A DNA stretch of 44,680 nt from a virus, in UHGV virus genome UHGV-0024713. One strand, 5' to 3'. This document shows positions 500 to 13,723 of this stretch, one piece after another. Numbering within the stretch: position 1 is the first letter of the stretch; every line of letters begins with the position of its first letter. The notes under the pieces were generated by a model that had not been told where the DNA came from, ran no database searches, and saw only the letters and a program-made list of their open reading frames with translations. Position numbers and translations under genes: made by a program.

Positions 500-2770
500 A
501 TGACCATGAGTTTAATTAAATTCGCCGTAACAAGACCCGCTAAAAAAGGCGAAAAAGCCAGGGCGGAAAACTTCCAGATGACCACCGATGAATTTTTCGA
601 ATTTATCAATGACGCGAAAGAAATCTCCTCGGTGCATATCAACAAGACCGAGGATAAAGCCGAGTATGCGCGCCGCAAGCGTAAGGCCGATGGCATCGTA
701 GCGTATACCAGTGATGGCTTACGCCGCAAGACCAGCGCGGTGGACCGCTCGATCCTGTTCTTTGATATTGACCGCACCGACACTCGCACCTTGCGCCGCT
801 GCCGTAAGGCTTTCATCGACGCGGGTCTGGAACACGTATTTCACACCACTACCGGCGACCGCCACCCGCTGAAAGGAGGCACGCGTTGCGCTCGCTTCCT
901 GGTACTCACTGACAAGCCTGTACCGGCTGAAGACCTGGGCCGCGTCCAGTATGCACTATTACACCAACTGGGGCTGTCAGATGTGGACTTCGACGATTGC
1001 ACGAAAGACACAAACCGCCTTATGTACCTGCCTCACCAGCAATCGGTTGTTAAGTGTCACTATGGCAAGCGCGCCCGCGTCCGTCGTCTGCTCCGCCTGG
1101 CTGACAAGCTGGGGGTTGAGAAAGAGGAAGTTCGCCGCGAACTGACCCAGGGCGACGACGCAGTGGCAGACGGCATTCTGGACTGGTGCTTCCAGGCAGG
1201 ATTCGAGGAGTTATCTTCCGGTCGCGGTTATGAAGTGCCATGCCCTAACGAACACCTGCACAGCGGCGAAGGGTCGACGGCTATCATGGTCAAGGATGGC
1301 GAGATCCGTTTCAAGTGTATGCACACCGGCAACGAGTGTTGCTCGGAGCTAAATAGACACCAGCACCTGGCGCTACGTCTCATCGGGATACCGGACCACC
1401 TGAACGTCGAGCCACACAATATGTCCCGTAAGCAAATCGCCGCCATCCTGCCAGGTCTGGACGACGAGGAAGTCGAATCCTTATATGATCACATTGTTGA
1501 TGCGGTTGGCGACGGCGAAGAATACGGCGTGTGCACCGATGCGGATCTGGATAACGAGCCGGTCGCACTATTCAGTAAGCACGACCCGATTATCGAGGGG
1601 TTGATTAACTTTAAATCGACCTGGTACATGGCGGGTGAGTCGAATATCGGTAAATCGTTCTACGTGCTGGGCCAAATGGGCGCTGTTGCCGCCGGTATTC
1701 CGTTCGGCGGTGCGAAGGTTGTCCAGTCGCATTGCTTCTATTTCGATGCGGAAGGTGGCGAAGCCTCCCACCAGCGTAAGGAAGCATTGCAGATCAAATA
1801 TGAGCACGACCTGGACAAGCTGCACATTATCGACCTGCAATCTCGCGGCTGGGATATCACCAGCAAGTCCGGTTTGCGTGAAGTTATCAGCTTCATCAAC
1901 CGCACCGCTAACGGCGAACCGGTTGGCCTGGTGGCGTTCGACTCCCTCAACCAGACTGTTGCGCTGCGGTCTGCCGATGCTAAACCGTTTGACGAGAACA
2001 ACGCCAGCGATATGGGTGAAGTGGTCAAAGCGCTGAAGGCCATCGCGGAAAATACAGGTGGCAGTGCGGGCGTCATCCACCACCCGGCTAAAGGTGCAAA
2101 CGGCAGCAGAACCCCACGCGGGTCCGGCGCGCTGCATGGTGCTGTCGATTCTGCGTTCTTCCTGGAACAGCCGGACGACAACCAGCCCGGACAATTGAAC
2201 CTGTATCATGAGAAGTCACGTAACGGCATCAAGCAAGCGCCACGCGGCTTCGTCCTGCTCAAGTGCAAGGTTAAGGTGGATCTCCGCAAGTCCGAGGCGT
2301 TCGAGGCGCACCAGTCCACCAGCACCGGGCCAGACTTCGGCGACGTGGTCGCCGGATGGGACGTCAAGCCGATTGCCTCCACGCCACGCGACGAGACTCT
2401 CTATCTCGTACCGGTTGCCCTGGCACCGTTCGCTATTGAACAGGCGAAGGCAGCGGGCAAAGCAGCAGTTAAGGAAGAGAACACCGCCGGACCGCGCAAC
2501 GAAAAAGAGAAAGTGCTTTATGCGGCCCTGGAAAAACTGATGGAAGATAACCCGGACCATACCGGATTCAGTAAATCGGCAATTGTCCGCCAGGCGGGAT
2601 TGGCAAAAGGTGGCACATCGACGAAGGCAATCGACGATATGGTCGAGCGCGGCGTACTCGGTTTTTATACAGACCCACACACCGGGGCCATCTATGGGTC
2701 GTCTAATATCGTCATAAAAACGAATATACCCATCACGCTTTCAGCGACCGATGACGACCTGAGTGATTAG
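500..2770 (+). CDS. Primase-polymerase / helicase fusion (PrimPol-like N-domain, Zn-ribbon, P-loop helicase core, C-terminal extension)
   Basis: N-terminal ILFFDIDR acidic motif; Cys/His cluster CPNEHLHSGE...KCMHTGNECC; Walker A GESNIGKS, Walker B-like LVAFDSL, VIHHPAKG...GSGALHGAVD typical of RepA/DnaB-like P-loop helicases. Confidence 0.7.
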   Translation: MTMSLIKFAVTRPAKKGEKARAENFQMTTDEFFEFINDAKEISSVHINKTEDKAEYARRKRKADGIVAYTSDGLRRKTSAVDRSILFFDIDRTDTRTLRRCRKAFIDAGLEHVFHTTTGDRHPLKGGTRCARFLVLTDKPVPAEDLGRVQYALLHQLGLSDVDFDDCTKDTNRLMYLPHQQSVVKCHYGKRARVRRLLRLADKLGVEKEEVRRELTQGDDAVADGILDWCFQAGFEELSSGRGYEVPCPNEHLHSGEGSTAIMVKDGEIRFKCMHTGNECCSELNRHQHLALRLIGIPDHLNVEPHNMSRKQIAAILPGLDDEEVESLYDHIVDAVGDGEEYGVCTDADLDNEPVALFSKHDPIIEGLINFKSTWYMAGESNIGKSFYVLGQMGAVAAGIPFGGAKVVQSHCFYFDAEGGEASHQRKEALQIKYEHDLDKLHIIDLQSRGWDITSKSGLREVISFINRTANGEPVGLVAFDSLNQTVALRSADAKPFDENNASDMGEVVKALKAIAENTGGSAGVIHHPAKGANGSRTPRGSGALHGAVDSAFFLEQPDDNQPGQLNLYHEKSRNGIKQAPRGFVLLKCKVKVDLRKSEAFEAHQSTSTGPDFGDVVAGWDVKPIASTPRDETLYLVPVALAPFAIEQAKAAGKAAVKEENTAGPRNEKEKVLYAALEKLMEDNPDHTGFSKSAIVRQAGLAKGGTSTKAIDDMVERGVLGFYTDPHTGAIYGSSNIVIKTNIPITLSATDDDLSD

Positions 2771-2781
2771 TTTTTGCGCGC

Positions 2782-2826
2782 ATTGGTTGCCATTTTGAGT
2801 GTTTTTATCTGGCCGTATTGGTTGCC
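2782..2826 (+). promoter_or_regulatory. Direct-repeat pair of ATTGGTTGCC motif (copies at 2782-2791 and 2817-2826)
   Basis: Two identical 10-mers 35 bp apart directly after the primase-helicase stop; same motif recurs at about 10 other intergenic loci. Confidence 0.4.
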
Positions 2827-2876
2827 GTGTAGTGTGAGTATAGTGAATAGTTATGCAATAAATCTGCATAAACTAA

Positions 2877-2978
2877 GCGGGACAAAAAGCGGGACGGACC
2901 AGGGGCGGGACAAAGCGGGACAGCACCCCTGTCCCGCCCCGGATGACGCGGCCTGGCGGGGAGCGGGACAGCGGGACA
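2877..2978. repeat. Iteron array A: six direct GCGGGACA octamers plus one inverted copy, including palindrome GCGGGACAGCACCCCTGTCCCGC (2915-2937)
   Basis: Octamers at about 2877, 2889, 2905, 2915, 2963, 2971; inverted TGTCCCGC at 2930-2937; no credible ORF. Confidence 0.7.
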
Positions 2979-2984
2979 GCACCC

Positions 2985-3034
2985 CAGTCTTTCAGACTAG
3001 ACGGGGGGTCTGGCACCCCCCTCGTCTGAGACTG
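2985..3034. other. Long G/C-cored stem-loop A (CAGTCTTTCAGACTAGACGGGGGG-loop-CCCCCCTCGTCTGAGACTG), near-identical copy at 20035-20083
   Basis: Imperfect extended inverted repeat with G6/C6 core; partner differs mainly in the loop. Confidence 0.6.
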
Positions 3035-3097
3035 CATAAAATCCTGGACTGCATAACACACGGCAACATGATGCAAAGTGCGGTCGTCGATGAACTA

Positions 3098-3107
3098 GGC
3101 AACCAAT
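3098..3107 (-). promoter_or_regulatory. Single reverse-oriented copy of the recurring motif (GGCAACCAAT on + strand)
   Basis: Matches reverse complement of ATTGGTTGCC within the non-coding hub. Confidence 0.3.
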
Positions 3108-3188
3108 GCGAGTTGCAGAATGGTGGGTGAAAAATGCAGTTTGCAGTTACAGCAGATAGCGATCAACTTTTTCATACGCATGATTAAT

Positions 3189-3229
3189 ATTGGTTGCGTC
3201 CGCCCTGGCACCTTGCTATATTGGTTGCA
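3189..3229 (+). promoter_or_regulatory. sigma70-like promoter with embedded motif pair upstream of 3248..3556
   Basis: -35 TTGCGT (3194-3199) inside motif copy 1, 17-nt spacer, -10 TATATT (3217-3222) overlapping motif copy 2 ATTGGTTGCA (3220-3229). Confidence 0.5.
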
Positions 3230-3247
3230 CACCAACATGAGGACTGA

Positions 3248-3556
3248 ATGATGAAAGCGATTATCTGGAATTACTCCCTAGCCGTGGCAAAGTTGGACGA
3301 AGCGAAAGCACTGAACGGCAACATCGACCAGGCGCTTCAGGTTGCGATACTGGCCCACCAATCAATCCGTGATGCGCTCTACCGCATGGGCGCCAGCATG
3401 GACGAACTGAGGCCGTTGCGTATGGCAATCCACGAATACGCGCGGGCATTCTCCCGTGAGCGCCTGGCGTATCGCTTCGGTATTGGCGATAGGGCAGTGA
3501 CAAACGTCGCCAGGATTAAAGCCCAGCGCGAACTATTCGACCAGCTTGCGAAATAA
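3248..3556 (+). CDS. Hypothetical early protein (102 aa)
   Basis: ORF directly downstream of the promoter candidate; no recognisable motif. Confidence 0.5.
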   Translation: MMKAIIWNYSLAVAKLDEAKALNGNIDQALQVAILAHQSIRDALYRMGASMDELRPLRMAIHEYARAFSRERLAYRFGIGDRAVTNVARIKAQRELFDQLAK

Positions 3557-3565
3557 GGGGCCAAA

Positions 3566-3835
3566 ATGGGCCGCAGACGCGCTAAACAGCTTTCGTGGAG
3601 CATCCCACTGCATTGCATACGAATATGGGCTAAGAATGCGACTGAGGGCGATTCTGTATTCTGGTGCTATCGCGACGACGTGAAGCCACTGACGCAGACT
3701 CGCTACTTGCACCAGTTCGCGGCACAACACGATTTCAGGGTGCGGACTTCCTTGCAACCAATGGGAATACGTATTACATTACGCCGGAAGCCCGCCGTTG
3801 AGCGGGTAGGAAAACACTGGAGACTGAGCAAATGA
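3566..3835 (+). CDS. Hypothetical protein (89 aa)
   Basis: ORF in the same-strand early block, 10 nt after the preceding gene. Confidence 0.45.
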   Translation: MGRRRAKQLSWSIPLHCIRIWAKNATEGDSVFWCYRDDVKPLTQTRYLHQFAAQHDFRVRTSLQPMGIRITLRRKPAVERVGKHWRLSK

Positions 3836-3966
3836 TGATAGGCGGATTCTCGCAGGAGTTTATCTACCTGCATATGTGCGAACTTGACTACAAACAAAAC
3901 GGCATCGCTACGGTATGCGATGGCGACACGAAGACTATCGAAGAGATTGAGGAGACAGAGCAATGA
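3832..3966 (+). CDS. Small acidic hypothetical protein (44 aa), translationally coupled
   Basis: ATGA overlap with upstream stop and with downstream start at 3963; not in ORF track because under 60 aa. Confidence 0.35.
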   Translation: MMIGGFSQEFIYLHMCELDYKQNGIATVCDGDTKTIEEIEETEQ

Positions 3967-4580
3967 AATTACTATTCCGCCGTAAGCACGATGGTCGCAT
4001 CCTGAAGCCGATCCAGACCCTGGATTCCTACGTCCGCTTACAAAACGCGGCAGGCAATCGGGTCTGGTGGGCAGTGAAAAACAAGTTGCCGGAAAACTTT
4101 GAGGTACTCACTCACGATATTGAGCGCGGCGATGTGTTGCGTGATATTCGCGACGGTAGTATGTGGGTCGTCGAGTATGTCGGGCGTCATGGCCTGCGTA
4201 TGCAGAACCGCAAGGATGGCGTAGCGGGTATGACGTACTTCGGGCTAATCCACTACGAGCGCGTGGGGCGCAAATACAGCCTGCGTGCCCGCCAGCCGCA
4301 TGAGCGCGCGAACACCGAAGCGGATGCAGTTAACCGAGTAACGCGTGAGGTCGCACAGAAGACGCGCGTAGAGTTCCGCAAGTCACAGCCAGCCTATGCA
4401 ACCTACGACGCGAGCAAAGTGATGGAGCCGATCCGCCAGGCAACGCGTGAAATCATCAATCGCTTTGATGCCGTGACGAATGCACAGCGCCATGCGCAGG
4501 AATACGGCGTTGGATTCATCCGGGTAGAACGTGACGGCAGCATGAAAGCCATCGACCCGCGCTCGGTGATTCTGAAATGA
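3963..4580 (+). CDS. Hypothetical protein (205 aa)
   Basis: Long ORF, coupled to neighbours; no recognisable motif. Confidence 0.55.
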   Translation: MKLLFRRKHDGRILKPIQTLDSYVRLQNAAGNRVWWAVKNKLPENFEVLTHDIERGDVLRDIRDGSMWVVEYVGRHGLRMQNRKDGVAGMTYFGLIHYERVGRKYSLRARQPHERANTEADAVNRVTREVAQKTRVEFRKSQPAYATYDASKVMEPIRQATREIINRFDAVTNAQRHAQEYGVGFIRVERDGSMKAIDPRSVILK

Positions 4581-4714
4581 GTGCGACGATCCGTGATATG
4601 CTTCAGCATAACCGCTTTGAGATAGGCGGTCGGGTATTTCGCAATTACTTCGTGGCGCGTGCCTGGGCGCGCCATATTGGCAAACCAGAGGGGGCAATAC
4701 GATGCTACACGATG
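4577..4714 (+). CDS. Small hypothetical protein (about 45 aa)
   Basis: ATG overlaps stop of 3963..4580 (ATGA); ends overlapping start of 4702..4989. Confidence 0.3.
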
Positions 4715-4989
4715 TGATTTATTGGTTTGGCTTGGCCTGTGGGCTATCCCTGATCACGGCAGTGCTGGGCGCGATATGGGTATTCCTGATTTGGCCCGCG
4801 GGGGAAGCCGCCAGCATTACCCGCATGACGTTTCAGATGTACAAGCGCCGTGGCATCACGGAGCACCCGACCAGGTTGCGCATGTGGTGGCTGTGGTATC
4901 GCGATATGATAGGCGGGCGAACATTCGAAGCCGTCCGGTCGAGTGGATGGGAGTGGAAAGGCGTCGGCAAGTGGTCCATTTTCGATTAA
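4702..4989 (+). CDS. Small membrane protein (95 aa, N-terminal transmembrane helix)
   Basis: Hydrophobic segment FGLACGLSLITAVLGAIWVFLIW. Confidence 0.45.
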   Translation: MLHDVIYWFGLACGLSLITAVLGAIWVFLIWPAGEAASITRMTFQMYKRRGITEHPTRLRMWWLWYRDMIGGRTFEAVRSSGWEWKGVGKWSIFD

Positions 4990-5006
4990 TTATGCAAGCG
5001 TGATAT

Positions 5007-5042
5007 AGTCCCAGTGAGATAAAACTTACTGGGACTTTTTTT
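5007..5042 (+). terminator. Intrinsic terminator
   Basis: Perfect 9-bp stem AGTCCCAGT/ACTGGGACT followed by T7, ending one base before ATG at 5043. Confidence 0.7.
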
Positions 5043-5333
5043 ATGGATAAGCTAAACGAGTGGTTATTCGCCCTTGCGTGTCTTGCTGGTGGATTCGTGG
5101 GCGCACGCATTCATGGCGAGGCAACGAAAGGGCCGTTGAACTTCGTTTTATATGTAGTAGTTGGCTTCCTGTGTGCCATATTTGGTGCGCCAGCTATTGC
5201 CGAGTGGTCTGGCTTATCGGGCGAGCGCACTGTCGCCGGTTTGGGCTTCGTAACCGCAATCTTCTGGATGCCAATCGCCGACCGGATCAGGGAGACTATT
5301 GCGTCGTTCCGACTTCCGGGGGGTGCAAAATGA
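5043..5333 (+). CDS. Holin-like membrane protein (96 aa, about 3 transmembrane segments)
   Basis: Three hydrophobic helices; sits two genes upstream of the endolysin. Confidence 0.5.
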   Translation: MDKLNEWLFALACLAGGFVGARIHGEATKGPLNFVLYVVVGFLCAIFGAPAIAEWSGLSGERTVAGLGFVTAIFWMPIADRIRETIASFRLPGGAK

Positions 5334-5575
5334 TTATCTCCGTCCTGTTGTTTGTTATCATCGGGGCTTCGTCCCTGTTTAACGTGTATGCGCCGTCCGT
5401 CCGGGATGGCTTTTTCGGTCGGGTGCTGTATCTGTTAACGGCAATGGTCTGTTTTATCGGATTGTTGCAAACCGGAGACGTATCTGATACCACCTGGACC
5501 GCGTTAATCTGGCTGTTTGCATTGCGCACGCTGCGTAATGCTGTTTTGAATGGGGTAAAACATGCGATTCAGTGA
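5330..5575 (+). CDS. Second holin/antiholin-like membrane protein (81 aa)
   Basis: Internal ATG of track ORF 5060..5575 overlapping upstream stop (ATGA); 2-3 hydrophobic helices. Confidence 0.45.
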   Translation: MIISVLLFVIIGASSLFNVYAPSVRDGFFGRVLYLLTAMVCFIGLLQTGDVSDTTWTALIWLFALRTLRNAVLNGVKHAIQ

Positions 5576-6053
5576 CAACGGTCTACGATTTACGGCAGCA
5601 TGGGAGCAATTCAGCCCAGTGCCGTATTTTGCGACTAAGAAGGAGCAGGCACGCGGCCTGTACACCTGGGGTTATGGGCATACTGGCACAAATCCGCCGC
5701 GGAGCATTACCCGTGCGGAAGCACTGGAGCTACTCAAGCGCGATGTGGCGTATGCTGAGGACTGGGTGAATAAATACGCGCATAAGAGCATTAACCAGGC
5801 GCAATTCGACGCGCTGGTGGACCTGGTTATCAATGCCGGTCCTGGCCCGATCGTACCGGACCATATCGCCAATGACTTCGATGATGCGGTGCGCCTGGGT
5901 GACTGGGCGAAGGTCCGTGCTACTCTGCCGCAGTTCCGCAAGCAAGGCGGGGAAGTGCTGAAGGGATTAGTCCGTCGAGCAATCGGCAGGCAAGCGCTAT
6001 TCGATGGTAAGCAGTGGGACGTTGCCGAGAAGATCGGACGTAACGCGGCATAA
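5562..6053 (+). CDS. Endolysin, phage lysozyme (GH24-like muramidase)
   Basis: E...Y...GxxTxGYGHTG catalytic-region pattern (AAWEQFSPVPYF...GLYTWGYGHTG) comparable to T4/P22-type lysozymes. Confidence 0.8.
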   Translation: MRFSDNGLRFTAAWEQFSPVPYFATKKEQARGLYTWGYGHTGTNPPRSITRAEALELLKRDVAYAEDWVNKYAHKSINQAQFDALVDLVINAGPGPIVPDHIANDFDDAVRLGDWAKVRATLPQFRKQGGEVLKGLVRRAIGRQALFDGKQWDVAEKIGRNAA

Positions 6054-6069
6054 TACGAGGAGACACAAT

Positions 6070-6231
6070 ATGTTAAAAAGCATTCTTGATCATAACGCCG
6101 ACGCGCTCGCCGCGCTGGCTAAAACCGAAGACCCAGGCGCACGCGCCATTATCGCGGACACAATCAGTCATGCGGGTGTCTTTGATGCGAAGCTGCCGAG
6201 TCCGCCACCGCCCGCAGAGCCAGGGGAGTAA
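6070..6231 (+). CDS. Small proline-tailed hypothetical protein (53 aa)
   Basis: Internal ATG with GAGGAG RBS; C-terminal PSPPPPAEP; no lipobox Cys, so not called an o-spanin. Confidence 0.35.
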   Translation: MLKSILDHNADALAALAKTEDPGARAIIADTISHAGVFDAKLPSPPPPAEPGE

Positions 6232-6237
6232 ACCACA

Positions 6238-6262
6238 AGCCCGGTTAATTCCGGGCTTTTTA
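6238..6262 (+). terminator. Intrinsic terminator after the lysis cassette
   Basis: AGCCCGG-ttaatt-CCGGGCT followed by T5. Confidence 0.65.
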
Positions 6263-6266
6263 TTGC

Positions 6267-6305
6267 TTGACATGCAACCAACTATCAGACCATACTGCGA
6301 CCAAT
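6267..6305 (+). promoter_or_regulatory. sigma70-like promoter (TTGACA-18-CATACT) overlapped by two reverse-oriented motif copies
   Basis: TTGACA 6267-6272; TGCAACCAAC 6273-6282; CATACT 6291-6296; TGCGACCAAT 6296-6305. Confidence 0.45.
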
Positions 6306-6326
6306 CAACAAGAGGAGTATTACACT

Positions 6327-6419
6327 ATGGCACGTAATGATATTTGGGTATTGGCAATCTGGTCCGCCGCGGCATTTATTGGAATGGTAATTTGTGAGGT
6401 GACTTATGGCATTTAAACC
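6327..6419 (+). CDS. Tiny hydrophobic peptide (30 aa), speculative
   Basis: AGGAG RBS 9 nt upstream; hydrophobic core. Confidence 0.2.
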
Positions 6420-6579
6420 GCAACGCGATTCCCGCCCTATGGCGGCACGACCGCGGGCCTCCCAAATGGAGGCGTCATTCTTCCGGGGTCTTTCGTTCCT
6501 GACAAAGAAAGAGCAAGGAAAAGTTATGGGTGAGTTCCGTCGCATGATGGCGGAATTTAAACAGCAAGACAACTCATAG
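6406..6579 (+). CDS. Small basic protein (57 aa), speculative
   Basis: GAGGTG RBS; overlaps preceding tiny ORF. Confidence 0.25.
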   Translation: MAFKPQRDSRPMAARPRASQMEASFFRGLSFLTKKEQGKVMGEFRRMMAEFKQQDNS

Positions 6580-6639
6580 CGCACCGCAGTGTGGGCCGTG
6601 GTATATTGTCCCCGGTCCTCTCAATCAGGAAGATATACA

Positions 6640-7782
6640 ATGCACCCGCAAACTAAAATCACCGACGAGCAATTGATCGCCGAGTTGCAATACGGCACTA
6701 CCGCGAAAGAGATTGCGAAGAAGTACGGCCTTTCCCTACGAAACGTCTACATGCGCAAAGCCCGCCTGTCGAAGAAAGGTATTGGTCACGGTAACGATGC
6801 CGTAATCCGTAAGCGCGTTGCCGATGGCTTCGGCGTTAAGCGCGTATCCGCCCTGGTGCGCGGCAATGGCGAAGAGGTCATGTCGTGGGTTATCACTGAG
6901 CAGGACAAGGAGCGCCAGCTTGAAGCAATGCGCGCCGTTGTCGAAGGTATGAACAGCGAAATCACCCCGGCAGCACCAGTAAGCGCCCCGCCAGTCCCGA
7001 TCCAGGCACTTGACCTACTCAACCTGTACACCGTGTCAGACTTCCACCTGGGCATGTTGGCATGGGGTGAGGAGACTGGCGAGGACTGGGATATGGCAAT
7101 CGCTGAAGACCTGTTTTACCGCTGGTTTGTCGAAGCCTTCGCCCGCGCACCGGACGCAGGCACTGCCGTAATCAATATCCTCGGTGATATGGCGCATTTT
7201 GATAGCCTCGATGCCGTCACCCCAGCTAGTGGTCACATCCTGGACGCAGATACCCGATACCAGAAGTTGGTCCGCTACATGATTCGCATGGTGCGCAACG
7301 TGGTAGACCTGGCGCTGCAAAAACACCACAAAATCAAACTTCTAATCGTCCAGGGGAATCATGACGAGTCGGGCATGATTTGGCTGGCTGAAATGTTCAA
7401 TACTCTGTATGAGAACGAGCCGCGCGTCGATGTGGATACGTCGCCGGATGTCTACAAAATGGTGCAACACGGCAAGACCACGCTATTCTTCCACCACGGG
7501 CACAAAGCGCGCTTCGATGCTATCGAAACAGTCATGATTTCTAAATTCAGACAGGCTTTCGGGTCCAGCGAATACAGCTACGCGCATGTAGGCCACTTGC
7601 ACCACCAGAAGATTGTAGAATCCCGCAACATGATTGTTGAACAGCACAGGACGCTAGCAGCGAAAGACGCCTACGCCAGTCGTGGCGGTTGGATGTCCGG
7701 TCGCAGCGCCAACGTCATTACCTACAGCGCCAACTACGGCGAAGTAGCGCGCTTAACCATTAGCCCGGAAATGTTGAAGTAA
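6640..7782 (+). CDS. Metallophosphoesterase (calcineurin-like) with N-terminal helix-turn-helix
   Basis: Start chosen at internal ATG with AGGAAG RBS; HTH-like TAKEIAKKYGLSLRNVYMRK; phosphoesterase motifs SDFHLG, GDMAHFD, QGNHDE. Confidence 0.55.
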   Translation: MHPQTKITDEQLIAELQYGTTAKEIAKKYGLSLRNVYMRKARLSKKGIGHGNDAVIRKRVADGFGVKRVSALVRGNGEEVMSWVITEQDKERQLEAMRAVVEGMNSEITPAAPVSAPPVPIQALDLLNLYTVSDFHLGMLAWGEETGEDWDMAIAEDLFYRWFVEAFARAPDAGTAVINILGDMAHFDSLDAVTPASGHILDADTRYQKLVRYMIRMVRNVVDLALQKHHKIKLLIVQGNHDESGMIWLAEMFNTLYENEPRVDVDTSPDVYKMVQHGKTTLFFHHGHKARFDAIETVMISKFRQAFGSSEYSYAHVGHLHHQKIVESRNMIVEQHRTLAAKDAYASRGGWMSGRSANVITYSANYGEVARLTISPEMLK

Positions 7783-7803
7783 CGGCAGCCAGTAAGCCAC
7801 CCA

Positions 7804-7828
7804 GCCCGCCGATTTGGTGGGCTTTTTT
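7804..7828 (+). terminator. Intrinsic terminator; TATAAT hexamer just downstream at 7837-7842
   Basis: GCCCGCC-gattt-GGTGGGC (one G-U pair in RNA) followed by T6. Confidence 0.5.
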
Positions 7829-7912
7829 GTGCCTGTTATAATCCACCTTAGATGGCAGGGCCGTCTCCTATGTTGCCGATGGTCGGCGCATATGCACAAA
7901 AGGGCTTATATC

Positions 7913-8464
7913 ATGGCAGAAATCAAAGTTAAGGGCCGACGCGCCAAACTGGACGGACGAGTAGCAGTAACCCCGCGCCGTAAACCAGGCGAGCAAACCG
8001 AGCATACCAATCTCGGACCTGAAATCGAGTACGGAAAGCGCCGTAAAGGCGGCAAATGTGGACGCCCTACTGACTACCGATCCGTTTACTGCGACCAGCT
8101 TCGCCGCTATTTTGCCGACGCAGACGCCTGGCAGGTAAACTACTCCGATAAAGGCGCTGCACAAGTAATCCCCCGCAACAAAATGCCAACCTTCGGTCGA
8201 TTTGCCGCGGAAATCGGCGTGGGCGTAGCTTGCCTGTATCGCTGGGCGCGTGCGCATGAGGAGTTCGCCGAGGCGATGGCGGACGCTATGGAATTGCAGA
8301 AAACTTTCCTGATGGAAGCTGGCGGCGTGACCATCGCGGCAGGCTTCGCCACCTTCCTGCTTAAAGCCAACCACGGCGTCCGGGACGATGTTCCACTGGA
8401 TGACGACGAAGATGATAACGGCGACGTCGTTGTCGAACCTACCGGCAAAGGTCAGGGTGATTAA
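7913..8464 (+). CDS. Terminase small subunit (putative)
   Basis: 183-aa basic protein with HTH-like FGRFAAEIGVGVACLYRWARAHEEF and acidic C-terminus; stop overlaps the large-subunit start (TAATG). Confidence 0.5.
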   Translation: MAEIKVKGRRAKLDGRVAVTPRRKPGEQTEHTNLGPEIEYGKRRKGGKCGRPTDYRSVYCDQLRRYFADADAWQVNYSDKGAAQVIPRNKMPTFGRFAAEIGVGVACLYRWARAHEEFAEAMADAMELQKTFLMEAGGVTIAAGFATFLLKANHGVRDDVPLDDDEDDNGDVVVEPTGKGQGD

Positions 8465-9849
8465 TGCGTAACTATGCGGCAGAACATCGCGCCCTTGAAC
8501 GTGCGATCGCAAAGCGCAACCGACCACCACGCCCGACACGCGTTGCGCAGGCGGTGCGTCTTTACCAGCCTGATTGCCTACCGCACCAGGTCGAACTACT
8601 GCGGGACACGAAGACTAAAATCCTCGGCCTGTGTTCCGGCTTCGGCGGCGGCAAGTCATGGGTCGCAGCCCGTAAGGTAATCCAGCTTTTAACCCTGAAC
8701 CCGGGTCATGATGGCATCGTTACAGAACCGACTATTCCCCTCCTGGTTAAAATCATGTATCCGGAATTGGAAAAGGCATTCGACGAGGCTGGCTTCCGGT
8801 GGAAGTTCAATAAGCAGGACAAGATTTATAGCGTGCTGGTGAAAGGCAAATGGACCCGAGTTATCTGTGAGTCAATGGAGAACTACACACGCCTTATCGG
8901 GGTTAACGCCGCATGGATTGTTGCCGACGAATTTGACACCACGAAGCAAGACGTCGCGATGGCGGCATATCACAAATTGCTTGGTCGTCTGCGTGCTGGC
9001 TTGGTACGACAGTTCGTCATCGTGTCCACGCCTGAAGGCTACCGGGCGATGTATCAGATTTTCGAGGTGGAGAAGGATAGCCAGAAACGTTTGATCCGGG
9101 CGAAGACCACGGACAACCACCATTTACCGGCAGACTTTATCGACACGCTGCGCAGTCAGTACCCGGCGAACCTGATCGACGCGTACCTGAACGGCCTGTT
9201 TGTTAACCTTACGTCGGGCGCGGTGTACAAGATGTTTAACCGGGATGAGAACGCCAGCACCGAAGAAGTGCAGCCGGAAGACACACTGATTATCGGTATG
9301 GACTTTAACGTCACGAAAATGGCGGCGGTCGTGTACGTCAGACGGCAGCGCACTACCGAGAACAAGGAGTTCCGCGACGAGATTCACGCCGTGGATGAAT
9401 TCGTGGACTTGTTTGATACCCCGGCGATGATTGAGGCGATCGAGGAGCGCTACCCCGATCATTGTGCTGCCGGTCGGGTCGTCGTTTACCCGGATAGCAG
9501 CGGCAAGTCTCGCAAGACGGTCAACGCATCGTCGTCAGATATCGCGCAACTGGAAGACGCGGGCTTCGAGGTGGAATACGACAGCGTTAACCCACCTGTG
9601 AAAGACAGATTGATCGCGATGAATACGATGATGTGCAACTCGAAGGGTGTGCGCCAGTATTTTGTCAACCTGGATAAATGCCCTACACTAGCGAAATGTC
9701 TGGAACAGCAGGTTTACGACCTGAAGAAAGGCGAGCCGGATAAAACCGCCGGTGTGGACCACATGAACGATGCCGCGGGCTACCCTATTGCGCACTTGTT
9801 CCCTGTGATTCGTCCAATCGCCGTTGTTCCTACCGTAGATTTCTACTAA
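8464..9849 (+). CDS. Terminase large subunit
   Basis: Walker A CSGFGGGKS, Walker B WIVADEFD, C-terminal nuclease region (IIGMDFN...); canonical position before portal. Confidence 0.9.
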   Translation: MRNYAAEHRALERAIAKRNRPPRPTRVAQAVRLYQPDCLPHQVELLRDTKTKILGLCSGFGGGKSWVAARKVIQLLTLNPGHDGIVTEPTIPLLVKIMYPELEKAFDEAGFRWKFNKQDKIYSVLVKGKWTRVICESMENYTRLIGVNAAWIVADEFDTTKQDVAMAAYHKLLGRLRAGLVRQFVIVSTPEGYRAMYQIFEVEKDSQKRLIRAKTTDNHHLPADFIDTLRSQYPANLIDAYLNGLFVNLTSGAVYKMFNRDENASTEEVQPEDTLIIGMDFNVTKMAAVVYVRRQRTTENKEFRDEIHAVDEFVDLFDTPAMIEAIEERYPDHCAAGRVVVYPDSSGKSRKTVNASSSDIAQLEDAGFEVEYDSVNPPVKDRLIAMNTMMCNSKGVRQYFVNLDKCPTLAKCLEQQVYDLKKGEPDKTAGVDHMNDAAGYPIAHLFPVIRPIAVVPTVDFY

Positions 9850-9860
9850 GGAAACAGACC

Positions 9861-11381
9861 ATGACCGTTAACGTTGACAACCAGCACCCGCTCTATGCGC
9901 GCATCGCGCCAGAGTGGAAAATGATCCGTGACTGCGTAGCAGGGGAGCGCGCCGTGAAGGCGTGCGGGCCATTGTACCTGCCACACCCAGCCAGTGGCGA
10001 CACTACCGACCCGAAATCCCGGGCACGGTATAAGGCGTATAAGCAACGTGCTGTCTTCCTGAACGCCACCGCCCGCACACTGAATGCGCTGTTAGGCGTC
10101 GCCTTTGCGAAACCGGTAAGTCTGGACCTTTCCGGGGCTATGGCTGACCTGATTGACGACGTAGACGGTAGCGGTATGCCATTGCCGCAACTTCTGCGCG
10201 GTGCTATGTCGGAAGTGCTGCAATCGGGCCGCGCGGGCTTTATGGTGGACTACGACCGCCAGGCTAACTTTGATGAACTGGGTAACGTAGTGCCGCAGAC
10301 CGCCGCCGAGATGGCGTCACACCGCCCGCTTATCCGCCTGTATACGGCAGAGCAGATCATCAACTGGCGGCAGACCCACGGCGTCGACACGCTAATCGTG
10401 CTGAAGGAGACGGACGAAATCAGCACCGAAGACCCGGACGACTTCGCAAACCACGAAGTTACGATCTGGACCGAGCTTCGCATGATTAACGGTGCGGCAC
10501 ACGCCCGCCGCTGGTTTTACAACGCGGACACGTCCGAGGTGCAAATGGACTTGCCGCGGGGATTCACCCGCACCGACCTTGTACCACTGGTGGATGCCGC
10601 CGGTAACGCGCTTACGCAACTGCCTTTCTGTTGGTGTGGCGCGGTGGATAACAATGCAACACCAGATGCCGCACCGCTGGCGGATATCGCGTCAATCAAC
10701 ATTAAGCACTACAACGCCGAAGCAGACGTCGCCGAGATTGCGCACATTGTGGGTCAACCTACCCTCATTGCGACTGGTCTGACCCAATCATGGGCGGACA
10801 AGAACCTGAAGGGCGGCATTGCCCTCGGTGCGACTAAGGGCGTTATCCTTGGCCAGAACATGGACGCTAAACTGATTCAGGCCGAGGAGCGCAACTTGTC
10901 TGTAGCACTGTGTGAACGCCGAGAATTGCAAATGGCTAAACTGGGCGCGGCCCTGGTCGAGAAGGGGACCGCACCCAAGACGGCAACCGAGGCGGCCTAC
11001 GATGCGCAGACAGATAACAGTATCCTGTCACTGATTGCCGGTAACGTTGAGAAGGCTTTCAACCGTGCGCTGCAAATCGTTAAGCTGTTCACCGGCGACA
11101 CCGCCGACCAGCGCGTAACGCTGAACAAGTTCTACACTGAAATCACGGTTGATGCGCAGCTTATGACCGCGATGATGGCAGGTGTGCAGACCGGTACTGT
11201 CCGACTGGCTGACTTTATCAAGTGGATGATGGCCCAGGGCGTTATTGATGACTCGCAAACCGTCGAGCAGGTGGAAGACGAATTGCGAAATCAGAATCCA
11301 TTGCCTCAAATGTCCCCCGATGCGGTAGAATCTACCGAAGAAGACCCGGGCAAGGTAGCGGACAATGGCGAAGACAATTAA
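9861..11381 (+). CDS. Portal protein (putative)
   Basis: 506-aa ORF immediately after the terminase large subunit; call by synteny and size. Confidence 0.6.
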   Translation: MTVNVDNQHPLYARIAPEWKMIRDCVAGERAVKACGPLYLPHPASGDTTDPKSRARYKAYKQRAVFLNATARTLNALLGVAFAKPVSLDLSGAMADLIDDVDGSGMPLPQLLRGAMSEVLQSGRAGFMVDYDRQANFDELGNVVPQTAAEMASHRPLIRLYTAEQIINWRQTHGVDTLIVLKETDEISTEDPDDFANHEVTIWTELRMINGAAHARRWFYNADTSEVQMDLPRGFTRTDLVPLVDAAGNALTQLPFCWCGAVDNNATPDAAPLADIASINIKHYNAEADVAEIAHIVGQPTLIATGLTQSWADKNLKGGIALGATKGVILGQNMDAKLIQAEERNLSVALCERRELQMAKLGAALVEKGTAPKTATEAAYDAQTDNSILSLIAGNVEKAFNRALQIVKLFTGDTADQRVTLNKFYTEITVDAQLMTAMMAGVQTGTVRLADFIKWMMAQGVIDDSQTVEQVEDELRNQNPLPQMSPDAVESTEEDPGKVADNGEDN

Positions 11382-12468
11382 TCAATATATGGCGGATCGA
11401 ATGATTCGCCGTCACATCTTCACCCAGCGCCTGAGCAATGATCAGGCGCGGAGGGTGCTGGCTATGTGGGAGAAGTTCCGGCCCACTTTACTGGGTAAGC
11501 TGACCGAGTTACTTGATGGCAAAAAGTCCATGAACAACAAGGCACTTACCACTCTGTTAACGCAACTAGACAAGACCGTCAAAACGGAACTGCGCGCCGA
11601 GTTTAAGGCGCTGGCGGAGAACCTTCAGGAGTTCGCCGACACCGAGGCTGATTATCTCGCTGACACACTAACGGCAGCGATCCGGCCCGCTGTCGCCGTA
11701 CCGGCTGTTGAAGTAGTTGGCGTTGTTACCGGCGCGCAGATTGCAGCGACGGCAATGAAAAACCCGTTCCAGGGTAATACGATGATGCAATGGCCTGACT
11801 CACTCTCTGAGTGGACCAGGACGCAGATCGGTAATCAGGTGCGCGCTGGATTCATCCAGGGCAAGCCGACTATGGAAATTATTGCGGACGTGAGGCGCGC
11901 GCTAGGTGGTCGCAGTGCGCAAGCCATCTCGAGCGTTGTTAAATCCGCAGTCAACCACTATGCGGCTACAGCCCGCGAACTAATGGTAAAAGCAAATGAC
12001 GATATTCTCGAAGGTCGCCAGTGGTTATCTACATTGGACACGCATACTTCTCCCATGTGCCAGCTACGCGATCGCCTGTTTTATCCGGTTGATGTTACTC
12101 CCGACACCAAAGGAAAGCGCGGCGGTAAAGTGGTGGCGGGGTCACAATATGGCGCTGGTCCGGGCAAGTTGCATTATTGTTGCCGGTCGACGGAGACGTG
12201 GAAGGTTAAAGGCATGGAGGATTGGCCCAGTGGTAAGCGTCCAGCACTGAAGGCTGACGCAGGCCGATTGCTGAGTGAGCAGGTCGACGCGCAGACTGAT
12301 TTCTTCTCATGGGTGCAGCGCCAGCCGCGCCATATCCTGGAAGAATTATACGGAGTGCAACGCGCCGACCAGATTATGCGCGGCGTGAAAGTGCCGAAGA
12401 TGTTTACCGATTCTGGCGAACTGATGACTATCGCACAGCTTAAAAACCGGGGGTTATGGCGTGATTAA
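11365..12468 (+). CDS. Head morphogenesis / minor head protein (Mu F / SPP1 gp7-like position)
   Basis: 367-aa ORF overlapping the portal 3' end; call by position. Confidence 0.5.
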   Translation: MAKTINQYMADRMIRRHIFTQRLSNDQARRVLAMWEKFRPTLLGKLTELLDGKKSMNNKALTTLLTQLDKTVKTELRAEFKALAENLQEFADTEADYLADTLTAAIRPAVAVPAVEVVGVVTGAQIAATAMKNPFQGNTMMQWPDSLSEWTRTQIGNQVRAGFIQGKPTMEIIADVRRALGGRSAQAISSVVKSAVNHYAATARELMVKANDDILEGRQWLSTLDTHTSPMCQLRDRLFYPVDVTPDTKGKRGGKVVAGSQYGAGPGKLHYCCRSTETWKVKGMEDWPSGKRPALKADAGRLLSEQVDAQTDFFSWVQRQPRHILEELYGVQRADQIMRGVKVPKMFTDSGELMTIAQLKNRGLWRD

Positions 12469-12790
12469 ATATGCAGCGATAGGACTGGTTATCGGTCTGG
12501 TGGTAGGCTTCTGGCTGGGTGATTCCCACCGCGCTGCCGTTGTGGCGAAAGCGGCGCAACAAGCGCAAGCAAAAGCCCAGCGGCAGCAAACTAAGGTTGT
12601 CGAGCGATCCGTGCAGGCCGAACAGGCCCGCGACGTGGAATACCGGACTATCACGAAAGAGGTTGTTAAATATGTTACGCGTCCTAACCGCCCTGATTGT
12701 AGTTTTGATGCTGAGCGCGTGCGGATCAAGCAACGTGCCGTTGATGCCGCTAACGGAGTCGGCACTGCGACCGCCGTGCAAGTTCGATAA
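12461..12790 (+). CDS. i-spanin (Rz-like inner-membrane spanin)
   Basis: N-terminal signal-anchor helix AAIGLVIGLVVGFWLG followed by Ala/Gln-rich helical periplasmic domain. Confidence 0.6.
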   Translation: MIKYAAIGLVIGLVVGFWLGDSHRAAVVAKAAQQAQAKAQRQQTKVVERSVQAEQARDVEYRTITKEVVKYVTRPNRPDCSFDAERVRIKQRAVDAANGVGTATAVQVR

Positions 12791-12902
12791 CCCGTCCGCA
12801 GACCCCGACGAGGATTTGATGATTGACGTGAAAAATATGGAATGCGGGGCGAAGCTGAGGGCGCAGGTGTTGGAGTTGCAGCAAATAATTAAGGGGCCGT
12901 AA
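12672..12902 (+). CDS. o-spanin (Rz1-like outer-membrane lipoprotein), overlapping the i-spanin in another frame
   Basis: Internal ATG of track ORF 12519..12902; signal peptide plus lipobox LSAC; proline-rich mature part with Cys. Confidence 0.6.
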   Translation: MLRVLTALIVVLMLSACGSSNVPLMPLTESALRPPCKFDNPSADPDEDLMIDVKNMECGAKLRAQVLELQQIIKGP

Positions 12903-12916
12903 TGGCCCATTTTCCG

Positions 12917-13681
12917 TTATCGCGGAATACCGCAAATCTCGTTGAGAGTTTTCACGTCCAGCGCCACCGCCGTGGATTTTGGCTTGTCCGGGTATGGGAT
13001 GAATTGCTCAACTTCAGGCCACGCCTTAACCAGCTTCTTGTCAGTATTGTGCAGGTCCAGCACACCGGTAACGGTGAGTTTGAACGCATCATACTTCGCG
13101 CGCAACTCGCGACGGGCCTTGTCGTTACGGTCAAGGCGCTTACAGAAGTCATGGTCCGCCGGGTAGTCTACGCGACCGCGAGGGAGATATATCGGCAGCG
13201 CTTTCCCGTCCGCGTCAACTTCACATACTGACGCAAGCATAACCTCCTCGAACCCAGGTACGATATCGCCGAGATCGGGGGATAGCTTATTCATGTATTT
13301 ATATTCCCAGTATCCGCGATGTACGCGGTATTGGCGACCATCACCGCTCAAGGACAAGGTGCGAACATTTCCGCCTGCGTTGATTTCGAAAGTGGCGTCA
13401 TAAACGCGGCCTATACCCTTCGGGAGGCCTATGTCATAGCGATATGTTGCCTTGTTGGTGTAGACGCAGACGCAGTATATTGGCGACTTGGCACCTTCTA
13501 GTGCTTCGATGTGTGCGCGTAACTCGGCGAAAGTGCGAATGCCCTCCGGCATACAGTCCAGCGTGATTGCGTACGCCAGGTCGCGAGAGTCCATCATGAT
13601 TGATTTGGCTTCGGTAGCGATTTCATGGTCGCGCAGGATGTTAGCCAGAATCTGGTTTTTAATGTCTTTTGTCAGTCTCAT
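12917..13681 (-). CDS. Hypothetical protein (254 aa), antisense moron
   Basis: Start at internal ATG with GAGGA RBS; opposite strand to flanking structural genes; no recognisable motif. Confidence 0.6.
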   Translation of the reverse strand: MRLTKDIKNQILANILRDHEIATEAKSIMMDSRDLAYAITLDCMPEGIRTFAELRAHIEALEGAKSPIYCVCVYTNKATYRYDIGLPKGIGRVYDATFEINAGGNVRTLSLSGDGRQYRVHRGYWEYKYMNKLSPDLGDIVPGFEEVMLASVCEVDADGKALPIYLPRGRVDYPADHDFCKRLDRNDKARRELRAKYDAFKLTVTGVLDLHNTDKKLVKAWPEVEQFIPYPDKPKSTAVALDVKTLNEICGIPR

Positions 13682-13723
13682 TTTTGTGTCCTCGTGTTGG
13701 GGCTTTCGCCCCATTTGGCTTAG

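Follow-up and report, generated by a model that had tools for sequence, protein, structure and literature searches.

A probable holin–endolysin–spanin lysis pathway encoded in two places in a Dhillonvirus-type siphophage genome

The phage genome UHGV-0024713 (referred to here as the window, the whole stretch of 44,680 nt that was analysed) is that of a Dhillonvirus-type phage of Escherichia coli, with 90-96% nucleotide identity to ∼150 Dhillonvirus records. It is likely, with a probability of roughly 80%, that the phage uses the standard holin–endolysin–spanin pathway of a Dhillonvirus siphophage, with the genes for it encoded in two places. Gene content, family matches, synteny and conservation are the observations that carry this reading; from them we infer that a hole is formed, what part hol1 and hol2 (the two membrane proteins) each play in it, how transcription is divided into units, and that a hairpin has a regulatory role.

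In this pathway, the cassette at 5043-6053 would provide a GH24 muramidase located in the cytoplasm and, for the inner membrane, two small holin-like proteins; overlaps of 4 and 14 nt would couple the translation of the three genes. A canonical holin would open the inner membrane at a programmed time and give the endolysin access to the peptidoglycan. An i-spanin/o-spanin pair, produced from the packaging/head operon (12461-12902), would meanwhile build up across the periplasm and break the outer membrane after murein degradation. Such an arrangement is the rule in annotated genomes of Dhillonvirus and of the related Guernseyvirinae, and carries little weight as a discovery. The point of interest is narrower, namely how hole formation is assigned between the two membrane proteins, in genera (Dhillonvirus, Jerseyvirus, Kagunavirus) that are now widely used for therapy and biocontrol.

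Gene content of the two loci

The genes of the cassette and of the spanin locus are as follows.

5043..5333, + strand: hol1, a holin-like membrane protein of 96 aa with three predicted helices/transmembrane (TM) segments
5330..5575, + strand: hol2, a holin-like membrane protein of 81 aa with two strong TM segments and an amphipathic third helix
5562..6053, + strand: GH24 lysozyme-type endolysin, 163 aa, soluble
6070..6231, + strand: Pro-rich open reading frame (ORF) of 53 aa, an N-terminal module plus linker, ending in PSPPPPAEPGE
12461..12790, + strand: i-spanin (Rz-like) of 109 aa that starts with GTG and has Cys80 and an N-terminal TM segment
12672..12902, + strand: o-spanin (Rz1-like), 76 aa, with the signal MLRVLTALIVVLMLSAC, the lipobox LSAC and Cys17

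The cassette runs in the order hairpin with T-run, hol1, hol2, GH24 lysozyme, 53-aa Pro-rich ORF and second terminator, and the five elements from the hairpin to the 53-aa ORF lie where the initial annotation had placed them. Its reading of the region as a cassette in which a lysozyme-type endolysin follows a pair of holin-like membrane proteins agrees with the ORFs and their family matches. Across 13-14 related loci, the codon differences are predominantly synonymous (synonymous/non-synonymous 246/54 for hol1, 85/49 for hol2 and 487/77 for the lysozyme), so that these are genuine genes and not chance ORFs.

The endolysin is assigned to PF00959 with 75 bits (cut-off 22.3; 8.7e-21) and to phrog_7 at 1.7e-36, and its nearest solved structure is 8hp8, 'Endolysin mtEC340M' (1.9e-31). 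Residue E15, in the motif AAWEQF, aligns with the glutamate of AAFEGF in 8hp8, as expected for the catalytic Glu of GH24 enzymes. By hydropathy, the N-terminus (MRFSDNGLRFTAAWEQF...) contains no TM segment, SAR, signal or hydrophobic stretch of the kind that a pinholin/SAR system calls for. An endolysin lacking an export or SAR signal requires a large-hole (canonical) holin for its release.

The spanin genes lie 6 kb from the cassette, as had been proposed, and both the ORFs and the PHROG matches bear this out. The last 8 nt of the head-morphogenesis gene are shared with the i-spanin gene, whose product matches phrog_2536 'Rz-like spanin' at 4.1e-35, with the N-terminal TM segment expected of an i-spanin at residues 1-23 (hydropathy). 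The o-spanin gene starts within the i-spanin gene in another frame, overlaps it by 119 nt and extends 112 nt beyond it, an overlapped architecture. Its product has the features of a lipoprotein, with Gly18 (no Asp) at the +2 position and further cysteines at Cys36 and Cys58, and matches phrog_5672 at 2.5e-26 and phrog_1267 at 6e-12. These features are those of the overlapped 'Jersey' spanins catalogued by Kongari et al. 2018 (PMC6139136), whose Jersey families of i-spanins and o-spanins include phages HK578, EP23, JL1, SSL-2009a and SO-1. Two opposite-strand genes, one of them Nmad5, come after the spanins. The cassette was said to be devoid of spanins, and in the list of + strand ORFs for 5000-6600 none combines a signal peptide with a lipobox.

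The 53-aa ORF, which the initial annotation counted in the cassette, is present, but a role in lysis is improbable. It matches phrog_11068 (function unknown) at 8e-38. Longer alleles of 133-137 aa (loci L007-L010, L012, L013, L018 and L019), found in other Dhillonviruses, carry a C-terminal Big_2 Ig-like domain (PF02368, 2e-11 to 2e-9); as a short allele of a Big_2-bearing protein, the ORF probably stands outside the lysis machinery. Pfam and NCBIfam scans place neither this ORF nor the two spanins in a curated family. A 95-aa membrane protein at 4702-4989 was considered as a further cassette member and rejected: the K1H gene at that position is not homologous, and the Jerseyvirus homologues are located elsewhere in the interval that runs from the lysis cassette to the terminase genes.

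This layout is already annotated in RefSeq, is conserved in the genus and is shared by more than 100 related phages. Dhillonviruses in RefSeq/GenBank (YD-2008.s, NC_027383; EP23; SO-1; BASEL phages such as Oekolampad) have the same genes in identical order and spacing; YD-2008.s, for example, reads holin, holin, endolysin, small ORF ... DNA repair exonuclease, terminase, portal, head morphogenesis and two Rz-like spanins. The differences from these annotated phages are only allelic, with the short 53-aa allele here in place of the Big_2 allele; over the cassette region, the best nucleotide identity to Dhillonvirus records is ∼92%. Guernseyvirinae (Kagunavirus K1H and Jerseyvirus wksl3) have a homologous hol1-hol2-endolysin triplet upstream of the terminase genes and homologous overlapped spanins in the head module, after the head-morphogenesis gene, as here. 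Protein identity to these phages is only 26-55%; they have no homologue of the 53-aa ORF, and their scaffold gene directly follows the spanins, whereas opposite-strand genes intervene here.

Transcription units

The candidate signals around the two loci are as follows.

5001..5009, + strand: extended -10-like TGaTATAGT overlapping the 5' arm of the next hairpin; hypothetical cassette promoter
5007..5036, + strand: intrinsic-terminator-like hairpin with a 12-bp stem and a T7 run; its end is 6 nt from the hol1 ATG
6237..6258, + strand: intrinsic-terminator-like hairpin closing the lysis cassette (fold -18.6 kcal/mol, z = -3.95)
6267..6296, + strand: sigma-70-like promoter TTGACA-18-CATACT of the next unit; consensus match only
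7803..7823, + strand: intrinsic-terminator-like hairpin that separates the lysis cassette from the packaging/head/spanin unit
7834..7842, + strand: perfect extended -10 TGtTATAAT just after the preceding terminator; sequence match only
12894..12908, both strands: short GC-rich palindrome separating the spanin stop codon from the convergent gene Nmad5

The stem-loop followed by a T-run that is typical of intrinsic terminators is present at 5007-5036, 6237-6258 and 7803-7823, and phage PTXU06 has an annotated terminator at the site equivalent to 6237..6258. With two + strand terminator-like sites (6237-6258 and 7803-7823) between the cassette and the spanins, it is plausible that the two loci belong to separate transcription units. 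The element at 7834..7842 is a candidate promoter for the terminase–portal–head morphogenesis–spanin unit, and the palindrome at 12894..12908 may be a weak bidirectional terminator.

An alternative is that the split is not real in expression: if the terminators are leaky, the holins, endolysin and spanins would all be expressed from + strand read-through transcripts. The genes from 500 to 12902 are all on the + strand with short gaps, and by the criteria of the scan there is no strong sigma-70 match before hol1 or the terminase genes, both of which would suit read-through. Set against this are the three strong hairpin-plus-T-run sites at 5007, 6237 and 7803, two of them followed by promoter-like elements (6267-6296 and 7834-7842), and read-through is on balance doubtful, if with an appreciable minority chance. 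A literature search for a Dhillonvirus transcriptome found none.

Roles of the two membrane proteins

Both hol1 and hol2 have the characteristics of the holin class, being small, with TM segments and a charged C-terminus, and both are encoded next to the endolysin gene, an adjacency kept in relatives. For hol1, which matches phrog_2359 'holin' at 1.3e-31, hydropathy gives three hydrophobic stretches and the AF2 model (pLDDT 82) has helices at 2-23, 31-56 and 61-74/76-88. The protein is acidic at the N-terminus and carries a net positive charge at the C-terminus, with four basic and two acidic residues in 80-96 and a terminal motif RLPGGAK. For hol2, which matches phrog_2508 'holin' at 1.4e-27, hydropathy gives two strong hydrophobic stretches and a weak one; the AF2 model is of low confidence (pLDDT 64), with helices at 2-26, 28-49 and 51-80, and the C-terminus is basic (R66, R69, K77 and H78). 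The hol2 gene overlaps hol1 by the 4 nt ATGA and the endolysin gene by 14 nt. A dual start of the lambda type is found in neither, with a single Met before M75 in hol1 and before M39 in hol2.

Neither protein has a Pfam match at E <= 1 or an NCBIfam match, and hence neither is covered by a curated holin HMM; the family matches are to PHROGs 2359 and 2508 only, whose 'holin' labels are propagated annotation and not experiment. An exhaustive search with hol1 returned 11 cluster representatives at E <= 1e-3, ten of them 95-106 aa long; the exception, a protein of 356 aa, aligns in seven stretches only to hol1 residues 65-91. None of the 11 leads to a known non-lysis family, and the homology to non-lysis proteins that would have spoken against a lysis role is not seen for hol1 or hol2 in Pfam, in NCBIfam or in the exhaustive hol1 search. 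A word-indexed protein search with both proteins returned close relatives only, with uninformative names. Against viral structures, Foldseek matches the hol1 model mostly to holin-annotated proteins, including LydA-like ones, with weak E-values beyond the hol1 family, a result that supports a holin but is not diagnostic. Judged by its three predicted helices and a fold matching holin-named proteins, hol1 looks as holin-like as hol2. It is 100% identical to hol1 of YD-2008.s and is present in 290 phage records, against 640 for hol2 (tblastn); its labels vary across records between class II holin, holin/antiholin and hypothetical.

The assignment we favour, tentatively and at slightly less than even odds, is that hol2 is the holin that would form the hole and hol1 a co-holin, antiholin-type or timing partner that would tune when it opens. 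It is the wider spread of hol2, its overlap with the endolysin gene, its basic C-terminus and toxicity data from Jerseyvirus S10 that point this way. In S10, expressing the gene at the hol2 position reduced viability ∼100-fold and expressing the one at the hol1 position did not (PMC9677904), in a weak experiment that used trigger-factor fusions at 16 °C (PMC9677904) and with S10 orf22 equated with hol1 from gene order. The homologues that this experiment bears on are 26-37% identical in the related Jerseyvirus wksl3. Searches of the literature on lysis-gene genetics or transcriptomics in Dhillonvirus, Jerseyvirus and Kagunavirus yielded this single, weak expression study and, besides it, only a few descriptions of genomes.

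The roles could be reversed, with hol1 as a canonical, three-TM, class-I-like hole-former and hol2 as an antiholin or timing modulator. The confident model with three clear helices, the terminal charges (consistent with an N-out/C-in topology) and the fold match to holin-named proteins, LydA-like ones included, would all suit hol1 in this role, as would a tightly controlled translation start, which befits a lethal effector. The hol1 family also opens the lysis cassettes of distant phages: in Pantoea phages MED16 and LIET2 and in Erwinia phage RF1, the first gene of the pair encodes a distant relative of hol1 (25-37% identity), and the second, which overlaps it, a multi-TM protein with a basic tail and no detectable homology to hol2. 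(The MED16 cassette also includes Rz/Rz1, which separate the membrane-protein pair from the endolysin gene, whereas here the spanins are outside the cassette.) Two observations make reversed roles unlikely: in the weak S10 experiment, the toxic gene was the one at the hol2 position and the non-toxic one that at the hol1 position; and hol2, the more widely spread of the two, is always coupled to the endolysin gene, the overlap being present in all three genera examined (Dhillonvirus, Kagunavirus and Jerseyvirus).

Two holin-like genes in one cassette are also found in P2 (Y/LysA) and SPP1 (gp24.1/gp26). These cassettes, like those of P1 and the mycobacteriophages, are made of protein families unrelated to those here, and the Gram-positive cases differ in host envelope. 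In P1 (LydA/LydB/LydC/LydD, PMC9025707) and the mycobacteriophage F1 cluster (LysF1a/LysF1b, PMC13056207), small TM proteins adjoin the endolysin gene, as here, and would share hole formation and the control of timing between them. A further explanation builds on such cases (SPP1, the mycobacteriophages, the multiple holins of P1): hol1 and hol2 would be an obligate two-component holin forming hetero-oligomeric holes, neither being an antiholin. The strict order and translational coupling of the pair in Dhillonvirus, Kagunavirus and Jerseyvirus are in keeping with it, as are the overlapping multi-TM partner that always accompanies the distant hol1 homologues and the joint action of two holin-like genes described in the literature (PMC13056207, PMC9025707). 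It is nonetheless improbable, because the S10 hol2-position protein lowered viability by itself. That one of the membrane proteins has a non-lysis function, such as superinfection exclusion or membrane remodelling, and only happens to neighbour the holin is very unlikely: the missing Pfam/NCBIfam holin match and the unverified, inconsistent labels would allow it, but the position and the holin/endolysin overlap are kept in at least four phage lineages and the hol1 family is narrow, with no pointer to a non-lysis family among its 11 representatives.

The favoured assignment, with hol2 as the holin, shares its logic with the S-R-Rz/Rz1 cassette of lambda, a canonical holin with a soluble endolysin and a two-component spanin, and a Pfam comparison gives no sequence-family relation between the two cassettes. 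In lambda a single holin gene also gives the antiholin, through a dual start, whereas the present pair consists of two genes and lacks a dual-start motif; the lambda spanins are embedded and within the cassette, whereas here they are overlapped and 6 kb away. Unlinked spanin genes are a textbook feature of phages such as T4, whose lysis genes are t, e and pseT.3/pseT.2. According to a figure legend (PMC6139136, Fig. 8), the T4 spanin genes lie apart from those for holin and endolysin, as here; the latter two are also apart from each other in T4, whereas here they are together.

The hairpin before hol1

The region 4990-5060 folds at -24.1 kcal/mol (z = -4.9), and none of 200 shuffled sequences is equally stable. 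The 3' arm of the hairpin contains the sole Shine-Dalgarno-like element of hol1 (GGGA, 5031-5034), and the outer helix of the fold pairs the AUG at 5043-5045 with 4999-5003. The hairpin is kept in all Dhillonvirus loci, and related genera have analogous hairpins of different sequence before hol1, some without a T-run. In these relatives hol1 begins with a weak start codon (Kagunavirus, TTG; Jerseyvirus, GTG). A hairpin that hides both the Shine-Dalgarno element and the AUG, with counterparts in the relatives, is a hint of translational control; from its predicted fold, such a buried start would make the translation of hol1 low or dependent on where the transcript begins.

In lambda, a structured RNA, the sdi stem-loop, lies at the translation start of the holin. 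By a similar logic, the hairpin before hol1 could be a conserved translational switch as well as a terminator, a device common to Dhillonvirus and Guernseyvirinae. Read-through transcripts would have the hol1 Shine-Dalgarno element and start sequestered, the hol1:hol2 ratio would be low or conditional, and lysis would be timed through hol1 as a separate antiholin or co-holin. In Dhillonvirus, the extended -10 promoter over the 5' arm would give hairpin-less transcripts from which hol1 is translated. Taken as a whole this proposal is speculative and rather unlikely. Every Dhillonvirus locus has the element TGaTATAGT, even that of the divergent LM40P1, and TGNTATAAT-like matches occur in the window as often as expected by chance, which gives no statistical support to a promoter at 5001..5009. 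Even so, a structured translation start common to the genera offers a small, testable handle on lysis timing.

Comparison of the hairpin region with Rfam gives sub-threshold matches only (NsiR1, 27.5 bits against 39; Trp_leader, 20.5 against 41). Covariation analysis within Dhillonvirus, where the sequences are too similar, finds no double-compensatory pairs; in the Guernseyvirinae-like group, two pairs of the hairpin are compensated.

Two locations for the lysis genes

The lysis cassette of this Dhillonvirus lies between two hairpins:

5007-5036, + strand: hairpin with a 12-bp stem followed by seven T, ending 6 nt before the ATG at 5043
5043..5333, + strand: hol1, the first holin-like gene, 96 aa, overlapping hol2 by ATGA
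5330..5575, + strand: hol2, the second holin-like gene, 81 aa
5562..6053, + strand: lysozyme (endolysin) gene, 163 aa, with a 14-nt overlap with hol2
6070..6231, + strand: 53-aa ORF after a 16-nt gap, with the C-terminal end PSPPPPAEPGE
6237-6258, + strand: second, strong hairpin with a T-run

The initial annotation had described here a hairpin, two small membrane-protein genes, a lysozyme gene and a Pro-rich 53-aa ORF with no spanin, and all of this stands: in the ORF list for 5000-6600, no + strand ORF combines a signal peptide with a lipobox or has an i-spanin-like layout. Synonymous codon differences clearly exceed non-synonymous ones against 13-14 related loci (246/54 for hol1, 85/49 for hol2, 487/77 for the lysozyme gene), so these three are real genes. 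The spanin pair is found where it had been placed, at 12461-12902, as supported by ORFs, PHROG matches and a lipobox:

12461..12790, + strand: i-spanin gene, GTG start, with an 8-nt overlap with the end of the head-morphogenesis gene
12672..12902, + strand: o-spanin gene, 76 aa, matching phrog_5672 (2.5e-26) and phrog_1267 (6e-12)
12917-13714, - strand: Nmad5 (nucleotide modification associated domain 5) gene, PF18757 (2e-55), convergent with the spanins

The i-spanin has 109 aa, an N-terminal transmembrane segment and a match to phrog_2536, 'Rz-like spanin' (4e-35). The o-spanin carries the signal MLRVLTALIVVLMLSAC, a lipobox Cys17 with Gly at +2, and further cysteines at 36 and 58. Its gene begins within the i-spanin gene and extends 112 nt beyond its end, an overlapped architecture; Kongari et al. 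2018 (PMC6139136) assign HK578, EP23, JL1, SSL-2009a and SO-1 to their 'Jersey' families of overlapped i- and o-spanins. Many Dhillonvirus records annotate one spanin or none, and the RefSeq o-spanin of Escherichia phage YD-2008.s (26394-26552, corresponding to window 12744-12902) is a 52-aa product from an internal Met (Met25 in the window), a start that leaves out the lipobox Cys together with the lipoprotein signal. The Nmad5 gene separates the spanins from the scaffold and major head genes; this head module is unbroken in Guernseyvirinae.

The endolysin is a GH24 lysozyme (PF00959, 8.7e-21). Among solved structures, 8hp8, 'Endolysin mtEC340M', is the nearest (1.9e-31), and E15 aligns with its conserved Glu. 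Hydropathy reveals no hydrophobic segment at the N-terminus; the enzyme is therefore cytoplasmic and requires a large-hole holin, and the same absence rules out a SAR endolysin with a pinholin. The canonical lysis pathway is the best-supported reading for the holin(s), endolysin and spanins: the holin(s) would build up in the inner membrane and then trigger, the soluble muramidase would reach the murein, and the spanin complex would disrupt the outer membrane.

Conservation and transcription of the split arrangement

The arrangement is shared widely. Nucleotide identity to Dhillonvirus genomes is 88-92% in the cassette region (154 matching records) and up to 96% in the spanin region (158 records). 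YD-2008.s, whose hol1 protein is 100% identical, has the same gene order and spacing as the window; its RefSeq record lists holin, holin, endolysin and hypothetical protein, and later DNA repair exonuclease, terminase, portal, head morphogenesis and two 'Rz-like spanin' genes. Cassette and spanins are 5-7 kb apart in every locus compared. In the Guernseyvirinae, Kagunavirus K1H (hol1 47%, hol2 47% identity) and Jerseyvirus wksl3 (26% and 37%) likewise keep hol1-hol2-endolysin homologues in this order upstream of the terminase genes, with homologous spanins that follow the head-morphogenesis gene inside the head module. A large group of siphophages thus inherited the split from its common ancestor. 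In T4, too, the spanin genes lie apart from those for holin and endolysin (Kongari et al. 2018, PMC6139136), and a 2025 paper on Dhillonvirus vB_EcoS_P78 reports 'endolysin, two holins and an Rz-like spanin' (PMC12677095). The initial observation is thus confirmed and its interpretation essentially right; a cassette with remote spanins is a conserved, already annotated organisation of this genus and its relatives. Some freshness attaches to three points: the roles of hol1 and hol2, the cross-genus hairpins over the hol1 ribosome-binding site and a longer Big_2 allele of the 53-aa ORF.

That cassette and spanins belong to separate transcription units is plausible from the elements between them, which include the 6237-6258 hairpin; the second such hairpin and the extended -10-type motifs are these:

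5001-5009, + strand: extended -10-like TGaTATAGT, overlapping the 5' arm of the 5007-5036 hairpin
7803-7823, + strand: strong hairpin with a T-run
7834-7842, + strand: perfect extended -10 TGtTATAAT, right after the 7803-7823 hairpin

A promoter-like element follows each of the two hairpins between cassette and spanins, and the depositors of PTXU06 annotated terminators at the equivalents of the 5007 and 6237 sites. The overall count of extended -10-type motifs in the window equals chance expectation, and a literature search found no transcriptome for these phages. Further one-mismatch copies lie a short way upstream of ORF starts, at 3214 (ORF 3248), 20107 (ORF 20152) and 30227 (ORF 30281). 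The first ORF past the promoter-like site at 6267-6296 encodes 29 aa (6327-6416; MARNDIWVLAIWSAAAFIGMVICEVTYGI), nearly all one transmembrane segment, and overlaps a basic 57-aa ORF (6406-6579); in Shigella phage 1b each of the two carries a hypothetical-protein annotation.

The two holin-like proteins and the hairpin before hol1

Hydropathy gives hol1 three hydrophobic stretches, and hol2 two strong ones plus a weaker, amphipathic one. AlphaFold models place helices at 2-23, 31-56 and 61-74/76-88 in hol1 (pLDDT 82) and, with low confidence (pLDDT 64), at 2-26, 28-49 and 51-80 in hol2. Pfam and NCBIfam gave no curated model for either protein; PHROGs 2359 and 2508, which they do match, carry the label holin through propagated annotation. 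Of 1.84 billion cluster representatives searched exhaustively by HMMER, hol1 matched only 11 at E <= 1e-3. Ten of these are 95-106 aa long; in the outlier, of 356 aa, the match is confined to hol1 residues 65-91 and recurs in seven stretches. Structurally, the hol1 model best matches viral proteins that bear the name holin, some of them LydA-like (weak E-values). No homology of hol1 or hol2 to non-lysis proteins was found, and the relatives' gene pairs, the narrow family and the structural matches support both as lysis proteins independently of the PHROG labels.

The most distant phage homologues of hol1 (Pantoea MED16, Pantoea LIET2, Erwinia RF1; 25-37% identity) each open an overlapping gene pair. 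The second gene encodes a 113-116-aa multi-transmembrane protein with a basic C-terminal tail and no detectable relation to hol2. In MED16 (2477-4169) Rz/Rz1 and then the endolysin gene come after the pair, so the hol1 family occurs with both in-cassette and remote spanins.

We lean towards hol2 as the hole-former. It is the more widely spread (640 phage records vs 290 for hol1), its gene runs into that of the endolysin in each of the three genera examined, and its C-terminus is basic, as typical of holins. In Jerseyvirus S10, expression of the gene at hol2's position cut viability about 100-fold and that of the gene at hol1's position did not (PMC9677904), a weak test that used trigger-factor fusions at 16 C. 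Gene order suggests that S10 orf22 is the equivalent of hol1; its naming as an endolysin (PMC9677904) is doubtful. The reverse assignment, with hol1 as the hole-former, is quite possible, as is an obligate two-component holin made of both. In the divergent Dhillonvirus LM40P1 (L019), hol2 (2788-3051) has a 13-residue N-terminal extension, absent from the window phage, with codon 14 giving another in-frame Met; it could have a dual start, yielding 88 or 75 aa.

The 4990-5060 region folds at -24.1 kcal/mol (z = -4.9). Across Dhillonviruses the hairpin stem is invariant and the loop variable; in the divergent LM40P1 one arm has an extra C and the other an extra G. Within the 3' arm lies GGGA, the sole Shine-Dalgarno-like element for hol1, 8 nt upstream of the ATG, and in the minimum-energy fold the AUG is paired as well, the structure covering 4999-5045. 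Relatives (L022-L069, about 1455-1503) have at the same position a stable hairpin of unrelated sequence, with GGAG or GGAGGA in the 3' arm:

Kagunavirus: UCCUCCAG...CUGGAGGA-UUCAUC-UUG, without T-run
Jerseyvirus: ...CUUUCGGAGAUU-UUUUAUU-GUG, with T-run
Third Guernseyvirinae-like group: CUCCGUA...UACGGAG-UCCUCxCACCG-AUG, without T-run

Two stem pairs of the third group show compensatory changes, and weak hol1 start codons (TTG, GTG) occur in relatives. By local folding energy, the initiation region of hol1 comes 1st among 62 genes in YD-2008.s, 5th of 46 in K1H and 3rd of 63 in wksl3, which is suggestive, not unique, because other top-ranking genes also follow terminators. Rfam holds no family for this hairpin. 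We hypothesise that it occludes hol1 translation, and hairpins over the hol1 start may regulate how this first holin-like gene is translated.

The 53-aa ORF and the upstream neighbour

Big_2-type Ig-like domains are typically found in phage proteins that are virion-associated or accessory. The first ~45 residues of the 53-aa ORF are conserved across Dhillonviruses, and eight loci (L007-L010, L012, L013, L018, L019) carry a longer allele of 133-137 aa with a C-terminal Big_2 domain (PF02368, 2e-11 to 2e-9; for example L018 2875-3288, L007 7402-7800, L019 3539-3943). The short window allele consists of the N-terminal module and the Pro-rich linker. It has no transmembrane segment or lipobox, and no homologue in the Guernseyvirinae loci compared; a lysis effector role appears unlikely.

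Just before the 5007 hairpin lies one further gene:

4702-4989, + strand: 95-aa protein with an N-terminal transmembrane hairpin, phrog_2531

The equivalent position in K1H has no homologue. About 300 records of Salmonella Jerseyvirus contain homologues with 31-36% identity, and gene sizes suggest that the likely homologue in wksl3 sits downstream of the lysis cassette, before the terminase genes.
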